Of a DNA stretch of 64,000 bases, positions 614-9,982 are shown piece by piece. The DNA comes from Escherichia coli O157:H7 (GTDB taxonomy: Bacteria > Pseudomonadota > Gammaproteobacteria > Enterobacterales > Enterobacteriaceae). How positions within the stretch are numbered: position 1 is the stretch's first letter; every line of letters begins with the position of its first letter. A model generated the notes under the pieces. It made no database searches, had not been told where the DNA came from, and saw nothing but the letters and a program-made list of their open reading frames with translations. The DNA is taken from assembly GCF_013167455.1 (NCBI RefSeq), contig NZ_CP038328.1, one strand, 5' to 3'. The position numbers and the translations under genes were made by a program.

Positions 614-2800
614 ATGTCCGATCGTATCGATAGAGACGTGATTAACGCGCTAATTGCAGGCCATTTTGCGGATCCTTTTTCCGTACTGGGAATGCATAAA
701 ACCACCGCGGGACTGGAAGTCCGTGCCCTTTTACCCGACGCTACCGATGTGTGGGTGATTGAACCGAAAACCGGGCGCAAACTCGCAAAACTGGAGTGTC
801 TCGACTCACGGGGATTCTTTAGTGGCGTCATTCCGCGACGTAAGAATTTTTTCCGCTATCAGTTGGCTGTTGTCTGGCATGGGCAGCAAAACCTGATTGA
901 TGATCCTTACCGTTTTGGTCCGCTAATCCAGGAAATGGATGCCTGGCTATTATCTGAAGGTACTCACCTGCGCCCGTATGAAACTTTAGGCGCGCATGCA
1001 GATACTATGGATGGCGTCACAGGTACGCGTTTCTCTGTCTGGGCTCCAAACGCCCGTCGGGTCTCGGTGGTTGGGCAATTCAACTACTGGGACGGTCGCC
1101 GTCACCCGATGCGCCTGCGTAAAGAGAGCGGCATCTGGGAACTGTTTATCCCTGGGGCGCATAACGGTCAGCTCTATAAATACGAGATGATTGATGCCAA
1201 TGGCAACTTGCGTCTGAAGTCCGACCCTTATGCCTTCGAAGCGCAAATGCGCCCGGAAACCGCGTCTCTTATTTGCGGGCTGCCGGAAAAGGTTGTACAG
1301 ACTGAAGAGCGCAAAAAAGCGAATCAGTTTGATGCGCCAATCTCTATTTATGAAGTTCACCTGGGCTCCTGGCGTCGCCACACCGACAACAATTTCTGGT
1401 TGAGCTACCGCGAGCTGGCCGATCAACTGGTGCCTTATGCTAAATGGATGGGCTTTACCCACCTCGAACTACTGCCCCTTAACGAGCATCCCTTCGATGG
1501 CAGTTGGGGTTATCAGCCAACCGGCCTGTATGCACCAACCCGCCGTTTTGGTACTCGCGACGACTTCCGTTATTTCATTGATGCTGCACACGCAGCTGGT
1601 CTGAACGTGATTCTCGACTGGGTGCCAGGCCACTTCCCGACTGATGACTTTGCGCTTGCCGAATTTGATGGTACGAACTTGTATGAACACAGCGATCCGC
1701 GCGAAGGCTATCATCAGGACTGGAACACGCTGATTTACAACTATGGTCGCCGTGAAGTCAGTAACTTCCTCGTCGGTAACGCGCTTTACTGGATTGAACG
1801 TTTTGGTATTGATGCGCTGCGCGTCGATGCGGTGGCGTCGATGATTTATCGTGACTACAGCCGTAAAGAGGGGGAGTGGATCCCGAACGAATTTGGCGGG
1901 CGCGAGAATCTTGAAGCGATTGAATTCTTGCGTAATACCAACCGTATTCTTGGTGAGCAGGTTTCCGGTGCGGTGACAATGGCTGAGGAGTCTACCGATT
2001 TCCCTGGCGTTTCTCGTCCGCAGGATATGGGCGGTCTGGGCTTCTGGTACAAGTGGAACCTCGGCTGGATGCATGACACCCTGGACTACATGAAGCTCGA
2101 CCCGATTTATCGTCAGTATCATCACGATAAACTGACCTTCGGGATGCTCTACAACTACACTGAAAACTTCGTCCTGCCGTTGTCGCATGATGAAGTGGTC
2201 CACGGTAAAAAATCGATTCTCGACCGCATGCCGGGCGACGCATGGCAGAAATTCGCTAACCTGCGCGCTTACTATGGCTGGATGTGGGCATTTCCGGGCA
2301 AGAAACTGCTGTTCATGGGGAACGAATTTGCCCAGGGCCGCGAGTGGAACCATGACGCCAGCCTCGACTGGCATCTGTTGGAAGGCGGCGATAACTGGCA
2401 CCACGGTGTCCAGCGTCTGGTGCGCGATCTGAACCTCACCTACCGCCACCATAAAGCGATGCATGAACTGGATTTTGACCCGTACGGCTTTGAATGGCTG
2501 GTGGTGGATGACAAAGAACGCTCGGTGCTGATCTTTGTGCGTCGCGATAAAGAGGGTAACGAAATCATCGTTGCCAGTAACTTTACGCCGGTGCCGCGTC
2601 ATGATTATCGCTTCGGCATTAATCAGCCAGGCAAATGGCGTGAGATCCTCAATACCGATTCCATGCACTATCACGGCAGTAATGCAGGTAATGGCGGCAC
2701 GGTACACAGCGATGAGATTGCCAGCCACGGTCGTCAGCATTCACTAAGCCTGACGCTACCACCGCTGGCCACTATCTGGCTGGTTCGGGAGGCAGAATGA
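614..2800 (+). CDS. glgB: 1,4-alpha-glucan branching enzyme
   Basis: 728-aa ORF; N-terminus [22 protein letters not shown] and GH13 motifs recognised; first gene of glgBX. Confidence 0.97.
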
Positions 2801-4770
2801 CACAACTCGCCATTGGCAAACCCGCTCCCCTCGGCGCGCATTACGACGGTCAGGGCGTCAACTTCACACTTTTCTCCGCTCATGCCGAGCGGGTAGAACT
2901 GTGTGTCTTTGACGCCAATGGCCAGGAACATCGCTATGACTTGCCAGGGCACAGTGGCGACATTTGGCACGGTTATCTGCCGGATGCGCGCCCGGGTTTG
3001 CGTTATGGTTATCGCGTTCATGGCCCCTGGCAACCCGCCGAGGGGCATCGCTTTAACCCGGCGAAGTTGTTGATTGATCCTTGCGCGCGGCAAATTGACG
3101 GGGAGTTTAAAGATAACCCGCTGCTGCACGCCGGTCATAATGAACCTGACTATCGCGACAACGCCGCCATTGCGCCGAAATGCGTAGTGGTGGTTGATCA
3201 CTATGACTGGGAAGATGATGCCCCGCCGCGCACGCCGTGGGGCAGCACCATCATTTATGAAGCCCATGTTAAAGGATTAACGTACCTGCACCCGGAGATC
3301 CCGGTCGAGATCCGTGGCACTTATAAAGCCCTCGGGCATCCGGTGATGATCAACTATTTGAAACAATTGGGCATTACCGCGCTGGAACTGCTGCCAGTGG
3401 CGCAGTTTGCCAGTGAACCACGTCTGCAACGCATGGGGCTAAGTAACTACTGGGGTTACAACCCGGTGGCGATGTTTGCGCTGCATCCGGCGTATGCCTG
3501 CTCGCCAGAAACGGCGCTGCATGAGTTTCGCGATGCAATCAAAGCACTGCATAAAGCGGGTATCGAAGTCATTCTTGATATCGTGCTCAACCATAGTGCG
3601 GAACTGGACCTCGACGGCCCGTTATTCTCGCTGCGTGGGATCGACAACCGTAGCTATTATTGGATAAGAGAAGACGGCGATTATCACAACTGGACCGGTT
3701 GTGGCAACACGCTCAATTTGAGTCACCCGGCGGTGGTGGATTATGCCAGCGCCTGCCTGCGTTATTGGGTAGAAACCTGCCACGTCGATGGTTTCCGCTT
3801 TGATCTGGCGGCAGTCATGGGCCGTACGCCAGAGTTCCGTCAGGATGCGCCGTTGTTTACCGCTATCCAGAACTGCCCGGTGCTCTCGCAGGTGAAGTTA
3901 ATTGCTGAACCGTGGGATATCGCTCCTGGTGGTTATCAGGTGGGAAATTTCCCGCCGCTGTTTGCCGAGTGGAACGATCATTTCCGCGATGCTGCCCGTC
4001 GTTTCTGGCTACATTATGATTTGCCTCTGGGGGCGTTTGCCGGGCGTTTTGCTGCCTCCAGCGATGTTTTTAAACGTAATGGTCGTCTGCCGAGTGCCGC
4101 GATTAATCTCGTCACCGCGCATGACGGTTTTACGCTTCGCGACTGCGTTTGTTTCAACCATAAACACAATGAAGCAAACGGAGAAGAAAATCGCGACGGG
4201 ACCAACAACAATTACAGTAACAATCATGGTAAAGAAGGGGTAGGCGGTACCCTTGACCTGGTTGAACGGCGGCGCGACAGCATTCACGCCCTGTTAACAA
4301 CGTTGTTGCTCTCCCAGGGTACGCCGATGTTACTGGCCGGTGACGAACATGGTCACAGCCAGCATGGCAATAACAATGCCTACTGTCAGGATAACCAATT
4401 AACCTGGTTGGACTGGTCGCAGGCAAGCAGTGGTTTAACCGCATTTACCGCCGCGTTAATCCATCTGCGCAAGCGTATTCCCGCTTTGGTGGAGAATCGC
4501 TGGTGGGAAGAAGGCGACGGCAATGTCCGTTGGCTAAATCGATATGCTCAACCTTTAAGCACGGATGAGTGGCAAAACGGGCCGAAACAGCTGCAAATTC
4601 TGCTCTCGGATCGCTTTTTGATCGCAATTAACGCCACGCTTGAGGTAACAGAGATTGTTTTACCTGCTGGGGAGTGGCACGCCATTCCCCCATTCGCTGG
4701 AGAGGATAACCCAGTGATTACGGCTGTCTGGCAGGGACCTGCACACGGATTGTGTGTGTTCCAGAGATGA
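2797..4770 (+). CDS. glgX: glycogen debranching enzyme
   Basis: 657-aa [26 protein letters not shown]...; ATGA start/stop overlap with glgB. Confidence 0.97.
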
Positions 4771-4781
4771 TAAAAAAGGAG
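4743..4781 (+). promoter_or_regulatory. glgC leader: CsrA-binding hairpin (CACAC-GGAUU-GUGUG) plus GGA-containing Shine-Dalgarno
   Basis: Stem cacac/gtgtg with GGA in the loop at 4743-4757, and AAGGAG SD at 4776-4781 before the glgC ATG; matches the published CsrA repression architecture of the glgCAP leader. Confidence 0.6.
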
Positions 4782-4787
4782 TTAGTC

Positions 4788-6083
4788 ATGGTTAGTTTAG
4801 AGAAGAACGATCACTTAATGTTGGCGCGCCAGCTGCCATTGAAATCTGTTGCCCTGATACTGGCGGGAGGACGTGGTACCCGCCTGAAGGATTTAACCAA
4901 TAAGCGAGCAAAACCGGCCGTACACTTCGGCGGTAAGTTCCGCATTATCGACTTTGCGCTGTCTAACTGCATCAACTCCGGGATCCGTCGTATGGGCGTG
5001 ATCACCCAGTACCAGTCCCACACTCTGGTGCAGCACATTCAGCGCGGCTGGTCATTCTTCAATGAAGAAATGAACGAGTTTGTCGATCTGCTGCCAGCAC
5101 AGCAGAGAATGAAAGGGGAAAACTGGTATCGCGGCACCGCAGATGCGGTCACCCAAAACCTCGATATTATTCGCCGTTATAAAGCGGAATACGTGGTGAT
5201 CCTGGCGGGCGACCATATCTACAAGCAAGACTACTCGCGTATGCTTATCGATCACGTCGAAAAAGGCGCACGTTGCACCGTTGCTTGTATGCCAGTACCG
5301 ATTGAAGAAGCCTCCGCATTTGGCGTTATGGCGGTTGATGAGAACGATAAAATTATCGAATTCGTTGAAAAACCTGCTAACCCGCCGTCAATGCCGAACG
5401 ATCCGAGCAAATCTCTGGCGAGTATGGGTATCTACGTCTTTGACGCCGACTATCTGTATGAACTGCTGGAAGAAGACGATCGCGATGAGAACTCCAGCCA
5501 CGACTTTGGCAAAGATTTGATTCCCAAGATCACCGAAGCCGGTCTGGCCTATGCGCACCCGTTCCCGCTCTCTTGCGTACAATCCGATCCGGATGCCGAG
5601 CCGTACTGGCGCGATGTGGGTACGCTGGAAGCTTACTGGAAAGCGAACCTCGATCTGGCCTCTGTGGTGCCGGAACTGGATATGTACGATCGCAATTGGC
5701 CAATTCGCACCTACAATGAATCATTACCGCCAGCGAAATTCGTGCAGGATCGCTCCGGTAGCCACGGGATGACCCTTAACTCACTGGTTTCCGGCGGTTG
5801 TGTGATCTCCGGTTCGGTGGTGGTGCAGTCCGTTCTGTTCTCGCGCGTTCGCGTGAATTCATTCTGCAACATTGATTCCGCCGTATTGTTACCGGAAGTA
5901 TGGGTAGGTCGCTCGTGCCGTCTGCGCCGCTGCGTCATCGATCGTGCTTGTGTTATTCCGGAAGGCATGGTGATTGGTGAAAACGCAGAGGAAGATGCAC
6001 GTCGTTTCTATCGTTCAGAAGAAGGCATCGTGCTGGTAACGCGCGAAATGCTACGGAAGTTAGGGCATAAACAGGAGCGATAA
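4788..6083 (+). CDS. glgC: glucose-1-phosphate adenylyltransferase (ADP-glucose pyrophosphorylase)
   Basis: ORF track starts at 4752, but [20 protein letters not shown]... with AAGGAG SD corresponds to the 431-aa protein; start placed at ATG 4788. Confidence 0.95.

Positions 6084-7516: not shown

Positions 7517-9982
<2,466 letters not shown>

Follow-up and report, generated by a model that had tools for sequence, protein, structure and literature searches.

The CsrA-binding hairpin of the glgC leader within the 3' end of glgX in Escherichia coli O157:H7

Background

The junction of glgX and glgC raises the question of whether a small hairpin with a GGA loop, written in the last codons of one gene, is the control site of the next gene, and, if so, how far such an RNA element is felt in the coding sequence that carries it. 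The leader of glgC is the founding, textbook example of translational repression by CsrA, and the operator in the E. coli glgCAP leader reportedly goes back to work by Baker et al. in 2002 and Mercante et al. in 2009. The CsrA hairpin of the glgC leader is already known. Since this leader is a founding CsrA target, calling the hairpin from the raw sequence, as a first-pass annotation of the DNA studied here had done, is a correct annotation and not a discovery. The comparison reported below adds modest value in that it quantifies the constraint of the operator on synonymous codons of GlgX (at the GGA codon and at the third positions that pair), points to the GGA loop as a feature of the Enterobacteriaceae and flags a conserved hairpin upstream. 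Anatomy, fold, conservation, covariation and identity with published sequences were computed, and binding, bridging, ribosome exclusion and mRNA destabilisation are taken from the literature.

Results

The DNA analysed, called the window in the following, is a stretch of 64,000 nt from E. coli O157:H7 (contig NZ_CP038328.1), and all positions refer to it. Over positions 4400-5100, sequence comparison showed no difference (100% identity) from the glgX/glgC junction annotated in E. coli O157:H7, and 5425 of the 5426 complete E. coli genomes carried the segment with at least 99% identity; the locus is the E. coli asd-glgBXCAP region. Gene coordinates were obtained by transferring the RefSeq annotation of the identical sequence onto the window:

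614-2800, glgB
2797-4770, plus strand, glgX, glycogen debranching enzyme
4768-4770, plus strand, stop codon TGA of glgX
4788-6083, plus strand, glgC, glucose-1-phosphate adenylyltransferase, the repressed gene
start at 6083, glgA
start at 7535, glgP

The spacer between the TGA of glgX and the ATG of glgC at 4788 covers 17 nt (4771-4787), exactly as the first-pass annotation had it, and the glgX stop codon sits 5 nt 5' of the glgC SD. Because glgC begins so soon after glgX, the last glgX codons also encode the hairpin, and the final 39 of them hold most of the glgC leader. A mechanical list of open reading frames let glgC begin at GTG 4752 (4752-6083). This start was rejected as an in-frame upstream extension, the real start being the ATG at 4788, which is both annotated and supported by the SD. 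The GTG at 4752 falls within the 3' arm of the glgC-leader hairpin.

The following features of the leader were placed on the window:

4654-4787, plus strand, glgCAP leader of 134 nt, with its start at about 4653-4654 deduced from the published '+46 to +179' construct
4670-4854, plus strand, E. coli CsrA CLIP-seq peak_333, placed by exact sequence match and highest at about 4730, 58 nt 5' of the ATG
4734-4762, plus strand, extended stem-loop predicted in E. coli, with a lower helix GGGAC (4734-4738)/GUUCC (4758-4762) under the hairpin
4741-4757, plus strand, CsrA-binding hairpin of the glgC leader (MFE and centroid folds, RNAalifold consensus of 40 species, published ACGGA site)
4763-4767, plus strand, AGAGA, non-consensus secondary CsrA site just 5' of the SD, over the last glgX codons (mapping deduced)
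4776-4781, plus strand, glgC SD AAGGAG, whose GGA (4778-4780) is a low-affinity CsrA site competing with the 30S subunit (sequence and literature)

A simple scan of 4300-4900 found no sigma-70 consensus promoter, and the start of the leader was therefore derived from the published primer and numbering, a 134-nt glgC fragment having been cloned as the '+46 to +179' construct (Yang 2010, PMC2896534). Transcripts of two kinds, the full glgBXCAP and glgCAP, have been reported. Since 117 of the 134 nt of the deduced leader lie inside glgX, the regulatory element overlaps coding sequence, which is the arrangement that had been proposed from the letters alone.

In the window the stretch around the hairpin reads ...cctGCACACGGATTGTGTGTgttccagagaTGAtaaaaAAGGAGttagtcATG. 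The hairpin itself, 4741-GCACAC GGAUU GUGUGU-4757, is followed by UUCCAGAGA, the UGA, UAAAA, AAGGAG, UUAGUC and the AUG. Its stem pairs G4741-C4746 with G4752-U4757 over 6 bp, the G4741·U4757 pair lengthening the helix of CACAC (4742-4746) and GUGUG (4752-4756), and its loop GGAUU occupies 4747-4751 with the GGA at 4747-4749. The first-pass annotation had thus read the CACAC-GGAUU-GUGUG hairpin with its GGA loop correctly, and had rightly put it within the last 30 nt of glgX; of the interval it gave, 4743-4781, the end is the last base of the SD and the start lies 1-2 nt too far inside the 5' arm. RNA folding, which had been suggested as a check, returned the hairpin in the MFE and centroid structures of every construct folded (17, 29, 71, 84 and 147 nt). 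In these folds and in the consensus of 40 species a short hairpin exposes the GGA in its unpaired loop, as in a CsrA dual-site operator of the glgC type.

The 17-mer by itself folds with -6.4 kcal/mol (z = -2.8). Leader constructs of 71-147 nt folded no better than their shuffles (z from -0.2 to -0.8, and -0.67 for the 71-nt construct), and the thermodynamic significance of the leader was discarded as an argument in view of these unremarkable scores. Hairpins of the same class, defined by at least 5 Watson-Crick pairs and a loop of 4-8 nt containing GGA, were not enriched on the plus strand of the window, where 25 were counted against 20.4 ± 5.1 in dinucleotide shuffles. Because the class is common and the leader fold unremarkable, the significance of the hairpin comes from its position, its conservation and the published experiments and not from sequence statistics.

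Of the five pairs of the lower helix (4734-4738/4758-4762), two are disrupted in most of the other genera aligned, for which reason the helix was rejected as a general feature; as far as the alignment tells, it is a lineage-specific addition. Within the extended stem-loop, AGGGA (4733-4737) is a possible, candidate minor CsrA site. In the GTDB representative genome of E. coli an A-to-C change at the base corresponding to window 4733 (L002:2446), which converts Gln647 of GlgX to Pro, destroys this AGGGA and leaves the hairpin intact.

The published binding data could be laid directly on these positions. Leistra 2018 (PMC6028588) gives a 61-nt glgC 5' UTR, the sequence of which matches window 4727-4790 without a difference. 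ACGGA, described in that study as the footprinted CsrA site outside the SD, occurs once in the published UTR, at 4745-4749, where A4745-C4746 close the 5' arm of the stem and G4747-A4749 are the loop GGA. Comparison with published footprints, the other check that had been suggested, was made through secondary sources and sequence identity, and the footprinted ACGGA maps to the hairpin. Point mutations in the middle bases of ACGGA, for which repression was assayed in vivo, were in general agreement with the binding-energy model of the authors, and a weaker non-consensus footprint was found just 5' of the SD (Leistra 2018, PMC6028588). The AGAGA at 4763-4767 fits this weaker footprint, being unique in the leader (one occurrence in 4651-4790). 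In Kulkarni 2014, which cites Baker 2002, ACGGA is given as a primary and AGAGA as a secondary CsrA site.

According to Pourciau 2020, the downstream CsrA site overlaps the SD, and a hairpin a short way 5' of it carries the other in its unpaired loop. The CsrA dimer is tethered there by binding with high affinity, then bridges to the SD and blocks translation, and such bridging works across 10-63 nt. The distance of 31 nt between the hairpin GGA and the SD GGA falls within that range. The same arrangement of hairpin and SD, with 'two primary sites', is given by Yang 2010 (PMC2896534). The number of CsrA sites in the glgC leader varies between sources ('two', 'two primary' or 'four'). The first-pass annotation, which named the GGA-containing SD beside the hairpin, covers only two of up to four reported sites.

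In Salmonella, CsrA CLIP-seq reads fall on the GGA hairpin in the glgC leader (Holmqvist 2016), and the E. coli peak_333 listed above has a log2FC of 2.04 and a padj of 4e-14 (Potts 2017 Supplementary Data 1). Repression of glgC that depends on csrA has been published with both glgC-gfp and glgC'-'lacZ reporters. Compared by eye with the SELEX consensus RUACARGGAUGU, GCACACGGAUUG agrees at 8 of 12 positions and contains both the invariant ACA and the invariant GGA. With the published 5' UTR, the ACGGA site and the CLIP-seq peak all mapping here, the claim that a CsrA control site of the glgC leader lies inside the 3' end of glgX is supported as far as the accessible literature allows.

Conservation was followed at two depths. 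Among complete E. coli genomes the 66-nt leader core was at least 99% identical in 5381 of 5425, and the other 44 fell in the 95-99% identity band. A scan with one genome per species gave 80 Enterobacterales glgC loci, and 40 species (38 Enterobacteriaceae and 2 Erwiniaceae) were aligned; these species counts are not phylogenetically independent, and the conservation figures that follow are descriptive and not formal tests. Throughout the Enterobacteriaceae and Erwiniaceae GlgX ends in ...W(H/Q)GPAHG(V/L)CVF..., and its tail codons GCN CAY GGN NNG UGY GUN encode Ala-His-Gly-(Leu/Val)-Cys-Val. Four of the six stem pairs are fixed by this peptide through non-synonymous positions, and because they are dictated in this way, much of the conservation of the stem cannot separate a constraint on the RNA from one on the protein. 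The other two pairs join third codon positions, Ala3 with Cys3 (4743-4755) and His3 with (Leu/Val)3 (4746-4752).

The 6-bp stem is the RNAalifold consensus of the 40 species and shows compensatory changes at synonymous sites. At 4743-4755 the pair is G-C in 26 species, G-U in 8, A-U in 5 and broken in 1; at 4746-4752 it is C-G in 32, U-G in 2, U-A in 1, G-U in 1 and broken in 4. The observed covariation score was higher than in any of 500 column shuffles, and slid controls paired worse except for the -2 register, which is permitted by the (CA)n/(UG)n repeat. The Gly codon of the loop is GGA in 32 of 40 species, against 12% GGA among Gly codons across glgX. Among 50 conserved Gly columns, GGA is the majority codon in only 3, of which two fall within the last 23 codons, in the leader. 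Stem and GGA are in this respect kept beyond what the protein code demands, by synonymous compensatory changes and a GGA count that ignore kinship between the species. Taken together, the compensatory synonymous changes and the excess of GGA argue that the RNA element constrains the coding sequence of GlgX. In sliding windows of synonymous diversity the 3' end of glgX lies in the lowest 4-10% (rank 18-44 of 456) and is not the minimum of the gene.

Outside the Enterobacteriaceae the picture changes in the loop. In Erwiniaceae (Pantoea, Mixta and Winslowiella; loci L040-L051 and L073) the AHGVCVF tail and a register-shifted stem are kept, and the loop codon is GGC or GGU. In Yersiniaceae (Serratia, L054-L058; Yersinia, L072) the loop Gly is replaced by Ser or Asp. 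No GGA hairpin 5' of the SD was found in the Erwiniaceae or Yersiniaceae loci examined. The AAGGAG SD is near-universal in the 80 Enterobacterales loci. From this comparison, the hairpin with a GGA loop appears to be restricted to the Enterobacteriaceae, and only the GGA of the SD appears to be universal.

Most of the 80 loci have a short distance, 10-17 nt, between the glgX stop and the glgC ATG. Long spacers of 22-81 nt were seen in L011 (Pseudocitrobacter), L018 (Trabulsiella), L025 (Klebsiella oxytoca) and L019/L026. The species with long spacers keep the hairpin in glgX at 67-120 nt from the ATG, in some of them past the 63-nt bridging range, and those with spacers of 54-81 nt have it at 87-120 nt. 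New GGA motifs are present in the long spacers, for example ccgcGGAGGgcgg in L011.

Discussion

The simplest reading of the hairpin and the SD, to which we assign a probability of about 0.95, is that they form the classical operator through which CsrA controls the glgC(AP) message of E. coli. The hairpin at 4741-4757 would offer its loop GGA as a high-affinity site to one RNA-binding face of the CsrA homodimer. The second face of the tethered dimer would then reach the weaker GGA of the SD (4778-4780), 31 nt downstream, probably helped by minor sites such as AGAGA (4763-4767). Bound CsrA would exclude the 30S subunit, with the consequence that translation of glgC is repressed and the mRNA secondarily destabilised, and sequestration of CsrA by the sRNAs CsrB and CsrC would relieve the repression. 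The stem pairs that are not dictated by the peptide and the A of the GGA stand at synonymous positions, where they would be kept by selection on the RNA.

The same hairpin could in principle be an accidental by-product of the conserved C-terminal peptide of GlgX, with no function at the level of RNA. Ala-His and Cys-Val are encoded by GCN CAY and UGY GUN, which are self-complementary, four of the six pairs use first or second codon positions of conserved residues, Pantoea and Mixta have lost the loop GGA and still have the AHG[VL]CVF tail and the stem, and other parts of glgX are under stronger synonymous constraint than its 3' end, which ranks 18-44 among 456 windows. However, the peptide does not account for synonymous partners that co-vary with pairing kept, nor for the use of a rare GGA codon in 32 of 40 species, and published footprinting, mutagenesis and CLIP-seq show CsrA at the ACGGA site. 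The loss of repression already published for mutated ACGGA also contradicts this reading, and a mere by-product is very improbable. A role of the stem-loop as an intercistronic terminator, attenuator or element of RNA processing or stability between glgX and glgC is hardly conceivable, even though a stable small hairpin close to a gene boundary might suggest it and CsrA does affect the stability of glgCAP mRNA (Pourciau 2020). The sequence 3' of the stem, UUCCAGAGAUGAUAAAAAA, has no U-run after 4757, which excludes a terminator or attenuator, and a terminator scan of 4300-4900 was empty. The stem has just 6 bp with two G·U or A-U-rich ends, and the literature ascribes the destabilisation of the message to the translational block. 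An Rfam scan of 4300-5000 at E <= 10 matched no relevant family, giving only a chance snoRNA match (E = 4.6); the hairpin is one that is known from the literature and has no Rfam model.

A further possibility would complement the operator and not replace it. Because only 5 nt separate the glgX stop from the SD, a ribosome that completes glgX on the long glgBXCAP transcript would be expected to unfold the hairpin, and it could thereby remove CsrA or favour coupled initiation at glgC. CsrA control would then be effective chiefly on the shorter glgCAP transcripts starting inside glgX. The spacing of 10-17 nt in most of the 80 loci, the report of both transcripts and the precedent of CsrA-controlled translational coupling in idlP-iraD are in keeping with such an addition, but CLIP-seq cannot tell which of the transcripts was bound, and we consider it improbable as it stands.

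Returning to the operator, the sequence is the same as that of the E. coli glgCAP leader, the UTR and the CLIP-seq peak matching exactly and the ACGGA, SD and 31-nt spacing agreeing; no difference was found, the strain of the window being O157-like and not K-12, with an identical leader. Like the sites in the sRNAs CsrB, CsrC and RsmZ and in the SELEX consensus, it carries GGA in the loop of a short hairpin with ACA upstream. The loop has 5 nt here against 6 nt in the majority of SELEX hairpins, and the stem 6 bp against 4 bp or fewer in most of them. The CsrB, CsrC and RsmZ sites belong to sponge sRNAs, whereas the glgC-leader site is in an mRNA and inside a coding region. In this it resembles sdiA and idlP-iraD, where a CsrA site within an ORF regulates translation initiation. 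The sdiA sites, however, lie inside the regulated gene itself and iraD is controlled by way of a leader peptide, whereas glgC has its site in the 3' end of glgX, the gene before it and one of related function.

One further hairpin of the leader deserves mention:

4694-4717, plus strand, second hairpin with a GGA loop, candidate additional CsrA site (full-leader fold, 40-species consensus, under CLIP-seq peak_333)

Its core pairs GCUGG (4696-4700) with CCAGU (4711-4715) and is extendable to 4694-4717. The loop, AGAGGAUAAC, has its GGA at 4704-4706, 43 nt upstream of the known hairpin and inside glgX. The consensus fold of the 40 species contains this hairpin, mostly as gccggaGAGGAUAAuccggu. A pair between Ala3 and Pro3 is C-G in 34 species, U-A in 4 and broken in 2, with no single-change intermediates, and the double change between C-G and U-A falls at two synonymous sites. 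With its start at 4699, the +46..+179 transcript classically used in vitro does not include the complete 5' arm of this hairpin, so it could not have revealed a site at 4694-4717. From these comparative data we tentatively suggest, with the odds clearly against it, that the 3' end of glgX may hold a conserved platform for CsrA which is larger than the known hairpin and includes it, with 4694-4717 as a candidate undescribed site. If this were true, two CsrA sites inside glgX could make the repression of glgC depend on the translation of glgX. In Enterobacter, Glu636 is changed to Ala (GAG to GCG) and the GGA of the second hairpin is retained.

A third hairpin is predicted in the 134-nt leader at 4669-4690, where GGGGAGUGG pairs with CCAUUCCCC around a 4-nt loop. 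The GGA at -117/-118 (4671-4673), found in nearly all Enterobacteriaceae and Erwiniaceae loci, sits in a stem, and its conservation may reflect a conserved Gly-Glu-Trp.

The strongest synonymous conservation in glgX lies elsewhere, at residues of about 275-302 (window about 3619-3702, core about 3631-3664). A promoter scan of 3500-3800 gave a single match, on the minus strand at 3707-3680. The stretch at about 3619-3702 carries the nearly invariant AACCGTAGCTATTATTGG, and CGCGGAATYGAYAACCGTAGCTATTATTGGAT is almost invariant at third positions in the 40 species, including a majority GGA codon at Gly281.
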